A stretch of DNA of 64,000 bases from Candidatus Parcubacteria bacterium (GTDB taxonomy: Bacteria > Patescibacteriota > Saccharimonadia > UBA4664 > JBIOIQ01): contig OY970378.1 in NCBI GenBank assembly GCA_963718875.1, forward strand, positions 477,373-541,372. The letters run 5' to 3'. The translations under genes and the position numbers were made by a program. Positions 3,268-55,773 of this stretch are shown one piece after another. The notes beneath the pieces were generated by a model that was given only the letters and a program-made list of their open reading frames with translations, was not told the origin of the DNA and ran no database searches. Each line of letters opens with the position of its first letter. Position 1 is the stretch's first letter.

Positions 3268-3606
3268 TGCTTTACAACTCAACCGAACCAGGGGGTCTTC
3301 GCTGTGTCAGGCAGAATCGACCGGCCAAGAAGCGGCAAGCATGCGGCGCACGATTCTACGAGGCATTACCGCAACTGGAGAGCTCTTCCCGATCAGGGTT
3401 CGGAAGCATCGACAGCTTCTGAGCTACAGAGTGGAGGTTCTTCGTCAACACCGGCGGTCCGTATTGACCGGAGGCGGTCTCTGAGCGCACTTCTGTCACC
3501 GCAACAGCTTCGTCGGCTTTCGTCGTAACCAACAACAGCCTGGGTTCTCGAGCTTTTGCCACCTGGCCTGCACGAAGTTGTGTGGGTCAGGTGGCTGTTC
3601 TTTTTT
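3268..3606 (+). ncRNA. candidate structured ncRNA (~340 nt; class undetermined, RNase P RNA/tmRNA/SRP-like not confirmed)
   Basis: A promoter lies at 3233-3261. The block is ~57% GC in an AT-rich intergenic region. Its only ORF is a low-complexity R/S-rich 74-codon frame. The 3' end carries an 8-bp stem (gccacctg/caggtggc) plus TTCTTTTTT. Confidence 0.35.
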
Positions 3607-10335: not shown

Positions 10336-10411
10336 GGGGACTAGGTGTCTGGGCTATGACACGTCTTGCATTATCGGTGCAAGGAAGGAGGTTCAAATCC
10401 TCAAGTCTCCA
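10336..10411 (+). tRNA. tRNA-like element (non-canonical; possible pseudo-tRNA or integration-site remnant)
   Basis: 7-bp acceptor pairing (GGGGACU/AGUCUCC). T-arm GGAGG-TTCAAAT-CCTC. D-arm GUGU/ACAC. Anticodon arm with a 7-nt loop UUAUCGG. Three extra nucleotides between the D and anticodon arms, and no encoded CCA. Confidence 0.35.
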
Positions 10412-10419
10412 CTGCAGTA

Positions 10420-41237: not shown

Positions 41238-41315
41238 ACTTGTGAAGACACTTTTTTTGCGCTAAATTAAAGCCAGCGCCGGACCAGCCGTCGCCTGTTT
41301 CGTGGAGGATGAATC

Positions 41316-41723
41316 TTGAGCCCACTTGAGGTTGCCGCTCTGAAGAGCCTGAATAAGGCTCGCAGAGCATGGGGATTGCCTTCGTGGCCGGCGCTGGTTC
41401 CGGCTACACCGTCCGACCCCTGTGGATGCGAGTTCTGGAAGGGGCTGGTCGACGGAGACCCATTGGTCTCGGTCGGAGCAGATCACATCATTGCTGGCCG
41501 AGATGCTGCTCGAGTCATCTATGCCGCCTTTGGCAGACTTGATGACGAGGGGAGAAGATGGGAGGTTCTGAGGGGAGATCTGGTCAAGATCAGGATGAGA
41601 GATACTCTCGCGAGCTTCGTGGAGGCCTTCGACGAGCGCCGTTTTCCTCATCTCATCGACGACGAGGCGGACGAGGCGTACCGGGTTAAGAGGGCGGCCG
41701 AGCAGACATTGGTTTCTGCCTAA
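41316..41723 (+). CDS. GC-rich (~62%) orphan hypothetical protein (135 aa), foreign-looking
   Basis: GGAGG Shine-Dalgarno with a TTG start. GC3-rich, protein-like frame. Followed by a 15-bp perfect hairpin at 41737-41778. Confidence 0.5.
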   Translation: MSPLEVAALKSLNKARRAWGLPSWPALVPATPSDPCGCEFWKGLVDGDPLVSVGADHIIAGRDAARVIYAAFGRLDDEGRRWEVLRGDLVKIRMRDTLASFVEAFDERRFPHLIDDEADEAYRVKRAAEQTLVSA

Positions 41724-41736
41724 TTGCTGCGCAACA

Positions 41737-41778
41737 TGATCCACCGTCGGTGGGGGGTTATCCCTCCACCGACGGTGG
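41737..41778 (+). terminator. 15-bp perfect inverted repeat hairpin (ATCCACCGTCGGTGG...CCACCGACGGTGGAT)
   Basis: Seen directly; GC-rich stem without a strong T-run. Confidence 0.5.
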
Positions 41779-41830
41779 ATTTAAGGTCACGGATTTATTA
41801 TTTAGCTACAAAGACGTATAATAGTAGTCA

Positions 41831-50963: not shown

Positions 50964-50992
50964 TTGACTTTAATTACTCAATGTGGTATATT
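50964..50992 (+). promoter_or_regulatory. sigma70 promoter TTGACT-N17-TATATT followed by a ~110-nt structured leader (15-bp enclosing stem GCGGGGATTTGTGAG/CTCACAAACCCCCGC, 51003-51110)
   Basis: Hexamers and the long-range stem were seen directly. Confidence 0.45.
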
Positions 50993-51180
50993 GAATTATC
51001 TTCGTTTTTTGCGGGGATTTGTGAGAGTGGCCAATGCCATATGGCCTTGATGCGAGAGTATCAAATAACTATTTTTCCGAACCGCTAAGATCGTTCGGCT
51101 CACAAACCCCCGCATTAAAGACGGCGACCTTTGACAGTCGAATAATCTAAGATCATTAGAGAAACGGCTTGCAACTTTGG

Positions 51181-51300
51181 CTTATTTCGTCGTTGCAGCT
51201 TGCGCTCCGCACTCACCGTACCATTAAGTACGGTTCGCTTGCGGTGCTCGCTGCGCCTAGAACTAAGTCCAGATTTGCAAGCCTTGCAAGAAGTACAAAT
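51181..51300. repeat. palindromic repeat family, copy C (upstream border of the GC-rich island)
   Basis: Shares gcgctccgcactc...ttcgcttgcggtgctcg with the copies at 9421, 10196 and 55491. Confidence 0.55.
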
Positions 51301-51512
51301 ACAAATCTAATACAAAATACTTGCTTCGCATTAACCTGCAAGCAGTTATTGTTTCGTTAACTAGGGGAGACCTATGATGTTAGCGAAACGTTATCTGCTT
51401 GCATGAAACTGTGCAAGCGAGGATTCGACACTTAGTCGAATTCAGTTGCTCTACCGAACATACAGAAACCACAGACCAGGGTGAGAACTCTGGCAGAGCA
51501 AAGGAAAAGACC

Positions 51513-52448
51513 ATGTCCGACCAGACCGGAGGACCCGGTACCACCGCCCCACCCCGCCGACCCACGCTCCAGGAGCTCGCCGACCAGGCGAGAGCCACGA
51601 TCGAGGAGCAGGCTCGACAGGCGAATGACCTCCAGGGTCAGCGCTCCGCCATCAACGCGATCAGCGGTCGAGTGGCGCAGCACGACGACGCCATCGCTGA
51701 CCTCCGGGACGCTTCGGCCCAGCAGGCCGACGCCGTGGACCGCCTCGGCCAGCGCACGCTGGTGGTCGAGGGACGCACGGACTCGTTGGAGGACTTGGCT
51801 CGCGCCAACGCCGCCGGCGTGGCCGGGCTGACCGCCAACATGGCTGACCTGACCACCAACGTCAACACGCTGGCCACCACGGTGGGCCAGCACGACACCC
51901 GTCTCGACGCCGTCGAGGACGCCGTGACGCCGGCCGCTATGCGGACGGTCGTCACCGAGGTGGTCGAGGAGCGCATGCGCGCTGTTCGGTTCAACTGGGT
52001 GGCCTTCGCCGTGGTGGCGATCGTGGGCTTCATCATCGACCTGTTGGTGTTCTCCGAGATGGGGAGCTTCAACAGCGCCGAGGCGCCGAAGCTCTCCAAG
52101 CACCTCACGGACGTCATGCACACGCAGAACTTCCTGGCCGTCATGCTCGTTGTCCTGGCCCTCGCCATACTCATCGCCCTCATCGTTCCGGTGGTCGGGC
52201 AGGACGAGCGTCCCAGGCAGGACCGCCAGCCCAGGCCGCCTCGGCAGCCCGGATCCGGCGGTGGTTTCATGGCCGGTCTTCGCAACGTTTGGAGGAGGGG
52301 TCGCGGTACGCCCGCTGCCACTGCGCCCATCCCGGCCAACTCCACGCCGGTGGCGACGACGAACCCGTCGGCCTCGTCCAACGCGCCCACTCAGGTGCTG
52401 CCGGCGGTGCCGACGTCCGGTCCGACGCCCTCATCGGGCAACCCGTAG
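51513..52448 (+). CDS. GC-rich (~68%) foreign gene: coiled-coil membrane protein with two TM helices and a Pro/Ser/Thr-rich tail
   Basis: AGGAAAAG precedes the ATG. GC3 ~90%. Ala/Asp-rich heptad-like N-terminal region, then two hydrophobic helices. The overlapping antisense ORFs are GC-shadow ORFs. Confidence 0.6.
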   Translation: MSDQTGGPGTTAPPRRPTLQELADQARATIEEQARQANDLQGQRSAINAISGRVAQHDDAIADLRDASAQQADAVDRLGQRTLVVEGRTDSLEDLARANAAGVAGLTANMADLTTNVNTLATTVGQHDTRLDAVEDAVTPAAMRTVVTEVVEERMRAVRFNWVAFAVVAIVGFIIDLLVFSEMGSFNSAEAPKLSKHLTDVMHTQNFLAVMLVVLALAILIALIVPVVGQDERPRQDRQPRPPRQPGSGGGFMAGLRNVWRRGRGTPAATAPIPANSTPVATTNPSASSNAPTQVLPAVPTSGPTPSSGNP

Positions 52449-52518
52449 TCCACGCGGTTCTTCAAGTGGATTGTCCCAATTCAAATACCTCCTAGCGTCA
52501 AGCAAAGAGGGAACAACC

Positions 52519-52549
52519 CTCTGTCCGCCCTTCGGGGCGGACAGAGGAG
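52519..52549 (+). terminator. 13-bp perfect hairpin (cctctgtccgccc-ttcg-gggcggacagagg)
   Basis: Seen directly, between the two island genes. Confidence 0.55.
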
Positions 52550-52647
52550 CAACTTTTACTTCCATGGATAGTAGTCCGCGTGAGAAGCAATTCTTACTCG
52601 GTTTCTGTTCATGGTGCAATCGGCACCCAAACGATAAGGAGGGTGCC

Positions 52648-53826
52648 ATGAGCACCAGAAGAGGTCCTGTTCTGATCATCGTGTGTCTGCTGATGGCAGC
52701 GGGGGCTTTGCTGTTCAAGTACGGCAACGGCCCAACGCCGGCAGTGGCACAGACGCCGCCCACGGTGCCCGTTTCGGACGTCTGCAAGGACGTCCCGGGC
52801 AACGTGCCGAGGTGGTTTGCCAAGGAGACCGACGGCAACAAGTTCGGTCCGGCGGCTCCGTTTGACCTTGGTCCCGCCAGGAAGGCTCAGCACGAGGTCC
52901 TGTGCCTCGACCCGGCCAACCTGGTGATCACCCAGGAGACCATCGACGGGAAGTTCAGCAGTCCGGCAAACCGGGCTGCCCGGACTCGCGTTCTCGTTGC
53001 CAACCCCACTGCGCGGTTGGCAGCGGTGGCCTATGTGCAGGCAGAGTTGGCCAAGGCCAAGGAGGTTCGGCTGGAGGTCCACACGGGACCCTACCAGACC
53101 TTCTACATGACCACCGACGGCGACGTGCCGGAGGTGTTCCAGTCTGCAGGGAGCTTCACCGAGGCACGGCACGTTCTCGTGTACGACTTCGGTAACGGTC
53201 GCACGGTCAACTTCGTACTGGAGTGCAACTTCCAGGGGGAGTTCCCCGGGCCGGTCAAGAACGTGCCGGTGGCAACGCCGGGCACTGTGCCGGCGCTGGT
53301 TCAGCCGGGGCCCACCAGCCCGCCGCCGACGACGTGCCAGTCGACCAACACCTGTTCGACCGTGACCAGCCCACCGCCCGTGTGCTGCGGACCGCCCCCG
53401 ACGACGTGTCAGGTCAACTGCGGTCCGCCCCCGACGACGTGTCAGGTCAACTGCGGTCCGCCGCCGACGACGTGTCAGGTCAACTGCGGTCCGCCGCCGA
53501 CGACGTGTCAGGTCAACTGCGGTCCGCCGCCGACCGTTTGCACACACAAGTGCGCGGGAGAGGACGTTGCGGTCAGTCCGAGTCTGGATCCTGTCGTTTC
53601 GGGACTGGCTGCGGGCAATGCCGCACCCACTGCGGTGGCAACACCGGTCGTGACGGCGCCTCCGGCGCCGCCTCCGCCCGTGACCACAGCCACGCCACCC
53701 GTGACGGCTCTGCCGTCCTCCGATGGCGTGGCAGCTCCACCGCCTGTAGTGGCTCCACCGTACGTGGCGCCCGATGCGGGCACTCCGTCCAACCCGACGA
53801 CGGGAACCATTCCGCCGCCGCCGTAG
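52648..53826 (+). CDS. GC-rich foreign gene: secreted/membrane-anchored protein with five CGPPPTTCQVN Cys-containing tandem repeats and a Pro-rich tail
   Basis: AAGGAGGG Shine-Dalgarno precedes the ATG at 52648. N-terminal hydrophobic signal/anchor. Repeats of 33 bp at 53386-53553. Confidence 0.6.
   Translation: MSTRRGPVLIIVCLLMAAGALLFKYGNGPTPAVAQTPPTVPVSDVCKDVPGNVPRWFAKETDGNKFGPAAPFDLGPARKAQHEVLCLDPANLVITQETIDGKFSSPANRAARTRVLVANPTARLAAVAYVQAELAKAKEVRLEVHTGPYQTFYMTTDGDVPEVFQSAGSFTEARHVLVYDFGNGRTVNFVLECNFQGEFPGPVKNVPVATPGTVPALVQPGPTSPPPTTCQSTNTCSTVTSPPPVCCGPPPTTCQVNCGPPPTTCQVNCGPPPTTCQVNCGPPPTTCQVNCGPPPTVCTHKCAGEDVAVSPSLDPVVSGLAAGNAAPTAVATPVVTAPPAPPPPVTTATPPVTALPSSDGVAAPPPVVAPPYVAPDAGTPSNPTTGTIPPPP
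53386..53553 (+). repeat. 33-bp tandem repeat x5 (ggtccgcc[c/g]ccgacgacgtgtcaggtcaactgc) encoding GPPPTTCQVNC
   Basis: Four near-identical copies plus one degenerate copy, seen directly. Confidence 0.85.
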
Positions 53827-54037
53827 GACACCACTTCTGCCCATTCGGGCAGGGGTCTACCCCAGGGTCTGGGGTGGTGCGCAAGCGCCACCCCGCCCTG
53901 TGGGTATACATATTCTTAATGATTTTGGATTATTCGATTGCTCCAAGGGTTAGTGCCCTTTAACATTTAGCGTCCAACTTAACTTGTAGATCATATTAAA
54001 TTCATTTTAACGTTCATTATTTAAAAGGAGAGCACAT

Positions 54038-55318
54038 ATGAAAGCTCAAATTCTCAAGCGAATTGCTGCTAGTGTTGCAGTGCTCGCTATCGGCCTGGTT
54101 CCTTTTGTTGCTGGCGCTGCTAGCAACTGGGGTCCTGCCCGTCCTGCTCTAACCTACAATGGCAACAACACTCCAGGTGCTGACCATGTAGTGTTTAACT
54201 CATTTACCAATAACCCTAACTATGGTGATGAGCGTGCGTTTTTTGATGGTAAGTCTGCCACTAACACCACAACTGGTGGTTACCAAGACACCATTAACGT
54301 AGATACTAATGGCGAATATCTGTTACGCATTTACGTTCACAACAATGCCGATCCTACGCTTAACGCTGGTGGTACCGGTATTGCTCGTAACACTAAAGTT
54401 CGGGTAGCTTTGCCGACCAATACAGATCGTAGCCTACGGGCCAACGCCTTTATTTCGGCTGACAATGCTAATCCAGGTACGGTGTTTGACTCAGTCGATT
54501 TCCAGACTACTGGAGCTTCAAACTTTGGTTTAAGCTATGTGCCTGGCTCGGCTAAAATCTACACTAATGTTACCCCCGCTGGCCGGGCTGTTAACGATAG
54601 TATCGTTGGCGCCGGTGCCCCTATTGGTTACGAAACCAACGATGGCAATATGCCTGGATGTTTCCAGTTTACTGCCTTCGTGACCTTGAAAGTTAGGGTT
54701 AACGCCCCTTTGTTAACGCTCAAAAAACAAGTTAAGTTAAACGACAGTGACGCTTGGACCTCAAGCGTTAACGCTAAACCCGGTGATTCAGTTTCATGGT
54801 TGATAACATTTAACAACACTGGAACTGCTCAAGTTGACAACATGATTGTCCGTGACCAATTACCTCCTCATGTAACGGTGGTCCCTGGATCAGTTATGTG
54901 GTTCGACACCCGCCGCCCTAATGGTCAACAGATGCCAGATGGTGCGCTGTTTACCACGGGAGGTATAAATGTCGGTAGCTACGCTGCTGGTGGTGGCGGT
55001 TACATCCGTTTCCGTACCACGTTGAACAATGACTTTACTGCTTGCAGTACAACCATTAACAACAACAGCTTTGTAAAAGCTACTAACATGCCTGAGATTT
55101 CAGCTTCAGCTGGAGTGGTAGTAACAAAGGTTTGTACAACTACAACTACTGTTACTCCTCCTCCTGTAGTGACCCCTCCTCCGGTAACCCCTCCCGCTCT
55201 TCCTGCTACTGGTGCCGAAGGTGCCTTAGCTGGAATATTCGGTACAGCCGGTATCGGTTACAGTCTGCGCTCATACTTGCGCAGCAAACGTGGCCTTATC
55301 GATTCTTTGAAACGATAA
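54038..55318 (+). CDS. LPXTG-anchored cell-surface protein (sortase substrate)
   Basis: Signal peptide. C-terminal LPATG followed by a hydrophobic stretch and a basic tail, after a TTTTVTPPPVVTPPPVTPP linker. Terminator hairpin at 55441-55475. Confidence 0.8.
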   Translation: MKAQILKRIAASVAVLAIGLVPFVAGAASNWGPARPALTYNGNNTPGADHVVFNSFTNNPNYGDERAFFDGKSATNTTTGGYQDTINVDTNGEYLLRIYVHNNADPTLNAGGTGIARNTKVRVALPTNTDRSLRANAFISADNANPGTVFDSVDFQTTGASNFGLSYVPGSAKIYTNVTPAGRAVNDSIVGAGAPIGYETNDGNMPGCFQFTAFVTLKVRVNAPLLTLKKQVKLNDSDAWTSSVNAKPGDSVSWLITFNNTGTAQVDNMIVRDQLPPHVTVVPGSVMWFDTRRPNGQQMPDGALFTTGGINVGSYAAGGGGYIRFRTTLNNDFTACSTTINNNSFVKATNMPEISASAGVVVTKVCTTTTTVTPPPVVTPPPVTPPALPATGAEGALAGIFGTAGIGYSLRSYLRSKRGLIDSLKR

Positions 55319-55490
55319 GCATCAAAGTCGAGAGTCGAAAGTTGTGAGCTGGGGTTTGTCCCTCACTCATGACTCAACACTCAAAACTCATGACGTTTAG
55401 GATCGGGGCTTGCCCCGTAACAGGCGCTTGCCGCAAAGCAAGTAATCAAAAAGACTCCCCATTGAACGGGAGTCTTTTTGTGTCTGAGGC

Positions 55491-55628
55491 AGAACTTACG
55501 CACGTGGCACATTTCGGCGCAAAGACTGCGCTCCGCACTCGTCCCCGGATCAAGTCCGGGGCAGGCTAGCGCTTGTTGCGGTGCTCGTCTTTGCATCCGA
55601 ACTGCACTCACGTGCGTAAGTTCTGGGG
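55491..55628. repeat. palindromic repeat family, copy D (ends aacttacgcacgtg / cacgtgcgtaagtt form a perfect 14-bp inverted repeat)
   Basis: Matches copy B end to end and shares the core with copies A and C. Confidence 0.6.
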
Positions 55629-55773
55629 CAGGATCTGGACGCTCATCCGGCTAAGAGTTACTGAAACGGAGCATCCTCACCAGGGCGGGGACTTCCTGTT
55701 TAGCATGACAATTGGAGGTTAGATGCTCTTAAAACGAAGGTGATTTAGTCGTTGCTAGGGTATAATTAGGCTT

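Follow-up and report, generated by a model that had tools for sequence, protein, structure and literature searches.

The hinge of human IgG3 is built from tandem EPKSCDTPPPCPRCP units whose cysteines (Cys) form inter-chain disulfides between the two heavy chains, and the number of units varies between alleles. In cnidarian minicollagens, Cys-rich domains of the pattern CX3CX3CX3CX3CC lie next to polyproline; they are compact 6-Cys knots that flank the collagen helix and polymerise by disulfide reshuffling. Secreted proteins of Gram-positive bacteria and actinobacteria carry proline/threonine (Pro/Thr) linkers and wall-spanning Pro-rich regions, which are normally Cys-free and often precede an LPXTG motif. 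Here, we describe a tandem array of 33-bp units in the gene for a predicted exported protein of 392 amino acids (aa) on contig OY970378.1 of assembly GCA_963718875.1. The whole stretch that was analysed, hereafter the window, comprises 64,000 nucleotides (nt; positions 477,373 to 541,372 of the contig), and all positions are counted from its first letter unless a different locus is named.

Like the IgG3 hinge, the encoded array consists of short tandem units with two or three Cys each on a polyproline scaffold and would form a rigid, disulfide-held spacer; unlike it, it belongs to a bacterial exported protein, has no sequence relationship to the hinge, and its Cys are probably paired locally. 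The periodic C-x3-C beside polyproline and a CC pair at the end recall the minicollagens, and one family member, P0002, shows a similarly continuous pattern, but the units of the window protein lie 6-residue Pro/Thr linkers apart and no collagen repeat is present. With the Gram-positive and actinobacterial linkers it shares extended low-complexity Pro/Thr sequence, export, tandem units and a predicted variation in length, whereas it differs in its paired Cys, in having no LPXTG and in a tail that is C-terminal to the only globular domain. The explanation that we favour, with a probability of about 0.6, is that the array is a young, in-frame amplified module in a family of exported Saccharibacteria proteins, in which it would form a Cys-paired Pro/Thr stalk as part of a three-gene envelope module.

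The 33-bp array and the gene that carries it

Tandem Repeats Finder delimited the array at positions 53385-53534 (period 33, 4.5 copies, 98% matches, no indels, score 279), and a second, separate repeat search of the window found the 33-bp units in the same register. The array encodes CGPPPTTCQVN four times, followed by a degenerate fifth unit, at residues 247-302 of the protein, and the general codons of the unit are TGC GG(A/T) CCG CC(C/G) CCG ACG ACG TGT CAG GTC AAC (Table 1). A preliminary description of this DNA had given the same coordinates, unit sequence, count of four units plus one and CxxxC spacing, and all of these proved correct. Homologues align with the protein in this reading frame of the array, which is therefore the real one. 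Compared with units 3 and 4, unit 2 differs by 1 base and unit 1 by 2 bases; all differences are synonymous, comprising one GGA/GGT and one CCC/CCG change among the four good units. The decayed units upstream of the array are older than these four. The recent expansion proposed in the preliminary description is thus supported by the 98% identity and the restriction to synonymous differences, and by relatives with arrays of their own, including the 41%-identical P0002, whose array is old (period 24, 67% match).

Since the unit comprises 11 codons (33 bp), gain or loss of units alters the length of the protein and not its frame, so that on/off switching of the reading frame is not expected. As at variable tandem-repeat loci, the units are near-identical (98%, two of them identical) and able to misalign. 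An independent short-read assembly (Logan, ERR12037361), apparently of the same organism, whose upstream protein sequence is identical stops at about residue 260, inside unit 2; the array breaks short-read assembly, and this contig end fits the presence of the repeat in that read set while being silent on copy number. Metagenome contigs were scanned for DNA encoding CQVNCGPPPTTC, with no matches.

The gene, whose product is identical to database protein P0001, is preceded by the ribosome-binding site AAGGAGG seven bases 5' of its ATG. The preliminary description took the product to be secreted, which agrees with its basic and hydrophobic N-terminus followed by A-V-A before Q, a putative export signal of the kind expected for disulfide-bonded exported proteins and recognised by inspection. 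In the AlphaFold2 model, built with a 104-sequence alignment, residues 9-21 within the hydrophobic segment are helical. The Pro/Thr-rich region (residues 230-302) contains 14 Cys, and residues 227-332, array included, have a predicted local distance difference test score (pLDDT) of <50; accordingly, the array sits in a Pro/Thr region with no confident fold, in line with the Pro/Thr scaffold described earlier. The protein had no match above threshold in Pfam-A, NCBIfam or PHROGs. It was rejected as a lipoprotein, as it has no lipobox L-[AS]-[GA]-C and its only N-terminal Cys are C13 (in the hydrophobic helix) and C46 (...SDVCKD). A check for a sortase motif, suggested in the preliminary description, found none: the protein ends in ...TGTIPPPP, with neither LPXTG nor a C-terminal hydrophobic segment, and was rejected as a sortase substrate, the LPXTG belonging to the product of the next gene.

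A full-length query was swamped by Pro-rich words and returned four matches (itself and three relatives); hence a domain-only profile was used, and its exhaustive search yielded 157 family representatives at E <= 1e-3. The members are mostly 300-400 aa long, and the domain directly follows an N-terminal hydrophobic segment. Six matches were found in a collection of species-representative genomes, each labelled either Candidatus Saccharibacteria or 'bacterium', the latter with the same gene order. Metagenome contigs added two short loci and no more, and a scan of viral contigs revealed no relatives. No Pfam family recurred among 104 family members scanned, a Foldseek search with the domain model gave neither a PDB chain at E < 0.7 nor a viral model that was convincing, and a sequence-profile search of the PDB gave no solved relative of the domain. 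Literature searches found no description of the family, of the base-composition anomaly described below or of the flanking inverted repeats. So far, the family has been found only in Saccharibacteria genomes. About one-fifth of its members finish in a C-x(4-8)-C loop at the extreme C-terminus (among them P0018, P0019, P0025, P0048, P0071, P0098, P0128 and P0136), and the window protein finishes in TGTIPPPP. A conserved C-terminal sorting motif was also considered and rejected, a G-x-[IV]-P-like end being common to 29 of 128 members only.

Cysteine parity and proposed pairing in the family

For the 128 members with an intact tail, all Cys C-terminal to the conserved C-x-[FYWLM]-Q motif were counted as tail Cys, and the count was even (0, 2, 4, 6, 8, 10, 14 or 16) in 127 of them. 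The loop between the Cys of consecutive pairs ranged from 0 to 28 residues, three residues (CxxxC) being commonest with 56 cases, and the tails of the family consist of 24% Pro and 15% Thr. The tail therefore shows the even-Cys bias of disulfide-bonded exported proteins. Even parity together with CxxxC is what local disulfides predict and would be the signature of local loops along an extended linker, and the family-wide parity lends support to the disulfide reading in the preliminary description. The same description had offered metal binding as an option. On this view, Cu, Zn or Fe would be bound extracellularly by the CxxxC pairs. Motifs such as CxxxC and CxxC are capable of metal binding, but the tail counts show no preference for multiples of four and the loop lengths are widely spread, a poor fit to metal sites, for which groups of four Cys at constant distances would be expected. 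Moreover, conserved His, Asp or Met partners are absent and the location is extracytoplasmic, making metal binding very improbable.

A module C-x-x-[ND]-C-[GTKS]-P-P occurs as a single copy in distant members, namely as CTRNCGP in the L007 protein and as CKSDCVP in the L009 protein. Separate arrays of the module were found elsewhere in the family: CVENCTPPP three times in P0016, C[KR]xDCKPxxE four times in P0082, four units in P0122 and eight in P0002. Identity between array units at the DNA level was 98% in the window, 81% in L014 and 67% in L001, and the Cys are nevertheless kept in L001. The differing ages of the arrays, together with the kept Cys, therefore suggest that arrays are born, maintained for their Cys pattern and then decay. 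The array of the window would be a young one, and other members appear to have amplified similar modules independently.

Such births and losses might also be expected of neutral slippage in a disordered spacer whose Cys have no specific role, and the predicted disorder of the region and the 15 of 128 members with no tail Cys fit this view. However, P0002 has retained its Cys positions in an array that is old and has diverged at the DNA level, and the near-perfect even parity over 128 proteins shows selection on pairing; a functionless low-complexity expansion is hence improbable.

The parity fits the pairing of identical chains equally well. In this alternative, Cys of different protein copies would pair as a ladder, giving a covalent dimer or a polymeric surface layer; the C-x3-C-x6 periodicity on polyproline, which resembles the IgG3 hinge and minicollagen, and the nearly continuous C-x3-C-x3-C pattern of P0002 are also in its favour. 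Against it, the Cys pairs of most members are isolated, with loops of 1 to 28 residues and long Pro/Thr spacers, a pattern typical of local loops. Local loops are favoured over inter-chain pairing, which we regard as possible but unlikely, because isolated Cys pairs elsewhere in the family have long Cys-free linkers on either side.

In the explanation that we favour, a small module, C-x-x-N-C with a Pro/Thr linker, which would be native to the family tail, was amplified in frame. Each CxxxC would most likely close a small local disulfide loop, and the GPPPTT linkers between the loops would be extended. Loops and linkers together may form a semi-rigid, protease-resistant, disulfide-stapled stalk, whose length would be set by the number of modules and which would follow the conserved globular domain of unknown fold. 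The long near-identical DNA units would let the array gain or lose 33-bp units with the frame intact, changing the length of the stalk rather than switching expression on or off. The protein probably works with an upstream coiled-coil membrane protein and a downstream sortase-anchored DUF11 protein. What was observed directly is the repeat and its gene, the protein family, the statistics of Cys pairing, the separate arrays and the gene order; from these we infer the disulfides, the extended conformation and the role as a stalk.

Several points weigh against this explanation. The exact copy number rests on a single 1.19-Mb assembly. No close strain was present in any collection searched, the 90% cluster of the protein having one member, so that length variation is a prediction. 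Two pairing registers are conceivable: one with CQVNC loops, in which the vicinal Cys C246 and C247 would remain as a pair, and one with C-GPPPTT-C loops, which is equally even and in which C246 and C302 would be free to close around the array. The AlphaFold model is of low confidence over residues 227-332. Lastly, there is no direct evidence of disulfides or of oxidising machinery, the other genes of the window not having been screened for DsbA- or VKOR-type proteins.

In contrast to the tail, Cys counts of the domain were odd for 131 of 136 members: 109 have three, 13 have five and 9 have one. C193 was present in 104 of the 104 aligned members, Q196 in 102 and C46 in 103, and C86 is present in most members, though often misaligned. 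Most simply, C46 and C86 would form a disulfide, and C193 would be the conserved Cys that stays unpaired. In the DUF11/LPXTG protein encoded by the next gene, the Cys count was odd in all nine complete orthologues (3, 5, 5, 5, 3, 7, 3, 5 and 5). The odd Cys in the domain and in this neighbour suggest either a covalent link between both proteins or a reactive cysteine, and two candidates appear worth testing: an intermolecular disulfide that would tether the repeat protein to its wall-anchored neighbour, and a putative reactive centre at C193/Q196. As to the latter, the thioester motif of complement C3 and alpha-2-macroglobulin is CGEQ. The window protein and its relatives have the same i, i+3 spacing of Cys and Gln, likewise in extracellular proteins in which exactly one Cys would stay unpaired. 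However, their third residue is aromatic or Leu (F/Y/L) instead of Glu, and the four helices and sheet of the model are not the alpha/alpha toroid of a thioester domain. This likeness is a lead for the domain and not for the repeat.

The GC-rich gene pair and its flanking inverted repeats

In the window, the genes serS, secA, VanZ-like, Mur ligase and short-chain dehydrogenase are followed by a 700-bp spacer and then by the gene of the upstream partner (UP). Downstream of UP lie the repeat-protein gene, the DUF11/LPXTG gene, a release factor gene (a peptide chain release factor with PCRF/RF-1 domains, labelled prfB), ftsE, ftsX, a PcsB-like CHAP hydrolase gene, an S41 protease gene and pyrG. 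DUF11 was identified by both Pfam and NCBIfam in the neighbour, whose C-terminus consists of LPATG, a hydrophobic segment and RSKRG. UP gave no family above threshold in Pfam, NCBIfam or PHROGs, and the same UP architecture was found 5' of the family gene in other loci. All loci examined, even the one of a very distant member, have the triad of UP, family gene and DUF11 gene, with the DUF11 gene directly 3' of the family gene. The longer order of family gene, DUF11 gene, release factor, ftsEX, CHAP, S41 and pyrG recurs in L004, L006, L007, L008 and L009. Because the gene order recurs across loci, the very distant member included, the gene is a long-standing resident of Saccharibacteria genomes.

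UP and the repeat gene form a 2.5-kb block (51400-53900) with a guanine-plus-cytosine (GC) content of 65-72% in a window of about 44% GC. At third codon positions, the GC content (GC3) reached 0.88 in UP and 0.78 in the repeat gene (0.84 in its domain part alone), compared with 0.39-0.46 in eleven other genes and about 0.43 in neighbouring genes. In the gene pair, AAG, GAG and CAG account for 100% of their codon choices, TTC for 89% and ATC for 88%, compared with 44-48%, 16% and 17% in neighbouring genes, and Arg replaces Lys (36:12 vs 347:418). The codon usage of the pair is thus of a high-GC, actinobacterial style. A raised GC3 was likewise found in the 12 loci of conserved gene order for which GC3 was compared (window, L001, L003, L004, L006-L010, L013, L016 and L017): in 12 of 12, the GC3 of the family gene exceeded that of the adjacent DUF11 gene by 0.22 to 0.50, and that of UP was usually higher, up to 0.95. 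Across loci, the gene pair had a GC3 of 0.5-0.95 and neighbouring genes about 0.25-0.5.

An atypical composition such as this is a mark of genomic islands, and the array with the whole GC-rich segment might be foreign DNA, acquired recently from an actinobacterial host or a phage of high GC or else joined to the contig by a chimeric assembly. However, the same gene pair with raised GC3 occupies the same position in 12 of 12 independently assembled loci, the genome matches are all Saccharibacteria, and the non-coding parts inside the unit have ordinary GC. The other marks of an island, namely patchy distribution, donor homologues, viral relatives and border tRNA or direct repeats, were not found, nor was an integrase or any other mobility signature. 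In addition, the orthologues are only 28-41% identical, so that synonymous sites are saturated; a neutral foreign composition would have decayed at such divergence. The raised GC3 is thus maintained rather than recently imported, and a foreign origin, which was rejected, is hardly credible. Translational selection for high expression was also rejected, since the ribosomal protein L21 gene (16403-16834) has an ordinary GC3 of 0.43. Biased gene conversion at a recombination-prone surface-protein locus, selection on the mRNA or another process may cause the composition. The vls locus of Borrelia and the MgPa repeats of Mycoplasma genitalium are GC-rich antigenic-variation loci in low-GC bacteria. 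Here too, the predicted surface-protein genes are much more GC-rich than the genome and evolve fast; those loci, however, have silent donor cassettes and undergo gene conversion, whereas no paralogous cassette was seen here, though the rest of the window was not searched for copies.

Inverted-repeat arms of 24-26 nt flank the gene pair in six loci (window, L001, L003, L010, L013 and L017; Table 1), lying at equivalent places, one arm about 300-400 nt 5' of UP and the other in the spacer that separates the family gene from the DUF11 gene. They were not found in L004, L006, L007, L008 and L009, even with wider search windows. In an ungapped scan, the arm scores exceeded those of all shuffles in the window, L001, L003, L010 and L013; in L017, the arm score was 21.0 against a shuffle maximum of 24.0, with one shuffle higher, and the L017 arms therefore rest on arm-sequence homology and equivalent position. 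The left arm is also the best-conserved leader block between the window and L001, and manual comparison of the arms of these two loci revealed two double, pair-preserving changes. On the sense strand, arm mismatches comprised 17 G-U against 3 A-C pairs, and in 6 of 6 loci the energy of the arm duplex was -27 to -38 kcal/mol for the + strand and -18 to -24 kcal/mol for the - strand. These values hint at an RNA helix that would close the two-gene transcript as an RNase III-type stem, like the processing stems around rRNA operons. However, a score that takes G-U pairs into account had helped to choose the arm ends, and a replication-strand mutation bias, implied by the positive GC skew of the window, could give the same asymmetry. 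The outer edge of the left arm coincides with a conserved -35-like TTGACA/TTAACA and the right arm has no such element, an overlap that would instead fit a promoter or operator. With respect to an invertible segment, the pair is flanked by inverted repeats in the six loci, but in 12 of 12 loci it points the same way with respect to the DUF11 gene, which disfavours frequent inversion.

On these grounds, the gene pair may be a cassette bounded by inverted repeats of about 25 nt and actively kept at high-GC codon usage in genomes of about 30-50% GC, a reading that we consider decidedly doubtful. Recombinational replacement with GC-biased conversion, or selection on mRNA or codons, may be the process behind it. 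Through its conserved unpaired Cys (C-G-[FY]-Q), the repeat protein might be covalently linked to the LPXTG neighbour, whose Cys count is odd as well, or to the host surface. That the cassette is tuned for expression in an actinobacterial host is barely conceivable.

The untranslated regions of the pair are unusually structured (z -5.8 to -8.2; Table 1). The leader at 51169-51403 contains several TTGCAAG-like repeats, and the leader gave no Rfam match. In L007, a 23-nt, 91%-complementary inverted repeat (2870-2892/4272-4294) surrounds another gene (434 aa, raised GC) 5' of the family gene, and repeat-flanked genes may be a wider habit of the region. Elsewhere in the window, further GC-rich patches (0.56-0.61) were found at 2301-2850, 3301-3600, 41251-41800 and 55351-55700 with no convincing open reading frame (ORF); neither these patches, even at permissive thresholds, nor the spacer before prfB matched Rfam, and the short patches are possibly divergent structured RNAs. 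The only tRNA that ARAGORN found in the 64 kb is a tRNA-Asp (10336-10412) with the anticodon ATC instead of the usual GTC.

Table 1. Positions of the array, the three-gene unit and its flanking elements; rows for other loci use the coordinates of that locus
Feature	Position	Strand	Remarks
Repeat-protein gene, 392 aa	52648-53826	+	ORF; GC3 0.78
Predicted signal peptide or N-terminal anchor, residues 1-34	52648-52749	+	MSTRR, hydrophobic 8-23, AVA before Q; by inspection
Conserved domain of unknown fold, 165 aa, residues 41-205	52768-53262	+	Four helices, six-stranded sheet; pLDDT 93-98
Invariant C193-x-x-Q196 motif	53224-53235	+	C-G-[FY]-Q-P in family; C193 likely unpaired
Two decayed proto-units, PPPTTCQSTNTC / STVTSPPPVC	53320-53385	+	In register; 64% identity to reference unit pair
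Four near-identical 33-bp units	53386-53517	+	CGPPPTTCQVN each; repeat finding, in-frame reading
Unit 1	53386-53418	+	TGC GGA CCG CCC CCG ACG ACG TGT CAG GTC AAC
Unit 2	53419-53451	+	GGT in place of GGA
Units 3 and 4	53452-53484, 53485-53517	+	Mutually identical; CCG in place of CCC
Degenerate fifth unit	53518-53550	+	CGPPPTVCTHK
Closing Cys	53551-53553	+	TGC
Cys-free C-terminal tail, residues 303-392	53554-53823	+	Pro/Ala/Thr/Val-rich; translation; pLDDT 55-69
Upstream partner (UP), 311 aa	51513-52448	+	Coiled coil, two hydrophobic helices, Pro-rich tail; GC3 0.88
Downstream neighbour gene	54038-55318	+	Signal peptide, DUF11 repeat, LPATG sorting signal; GC3 0.41; three Cys
Promoter-like TTGACT-17-TATATT, TG-extended	50964-50992	+	Upstream of whole unit; consensus scan 10/12; not evidence of function
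Three-way-junction leader fold	51005-51120	+	-47.8 kcal/mol, z = -6.6; sequence not conserved in L001
Left inverted-repeat arm	51135-51158	+	24 nt, 88% complementary to right arm; outer edge overlaps -35-like TTGACA
Strong hairpin just 5' of UP	51337-51403	+	25-nt arms; -34.9 kcal/mol, z = -8.2
Perfect 13-bp GC-rich hairpin between both genes	52518-52547	+	-30.1 kcal/mol
Two GC-rich hairpins after stop	53830-53905	+	Terminator-like, no T run; -56 kcal/mol, z = -5.9
Right inverted-repeat arm	53917-53940	+	Best-conserved 3'-spacer block, window vs L001
Arms in L001	369-392/3666-3689		
Arms in L003	8493-8517/11355-11379		
Arms in L010	8489-8511/11022-11044		
Arms in L013	2160-2185/4555-4580		
Arms in L017	3695-3719/6455-6479		

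Significance for Saccharibacteria

Saccharibacteria live attached to other bacteria, mostly Actinobacteria, and the surface proteins that establish and tune this contact are largely unknown beyond type IV pili and the type IV secretion system (PMC10633639, PMC12857230). In the Saccharibacteria loci examined, the three genes make up a conserved and so far uncharacterised envelope module. Its predicted features are a new domain, a disulfide-stapled stalk of adjustable length and a Cys parity that points to a specific covalent partner, and these predictions are testable, as Saccharibacteria strains are now culturable and genetically manipulable.

The repeat itself is a familiar kind of spacer, and the GC-rich, repeat-flanked gene pair is more surprising than the repeat. 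The context that deserves follow-up is the Saccharibacteria-specific triad, the matched odd Cys in two neighbours and this gene pair. A GC3 gap that persists over deep divergence is an unusual case for the debate on bacterial GC content, in which selection, biased conversion and transfer are discussed. If the gene pair were indeed a cassette, the Cys-stapled protein would be a rapidly exchangeable determinant of host attachment.

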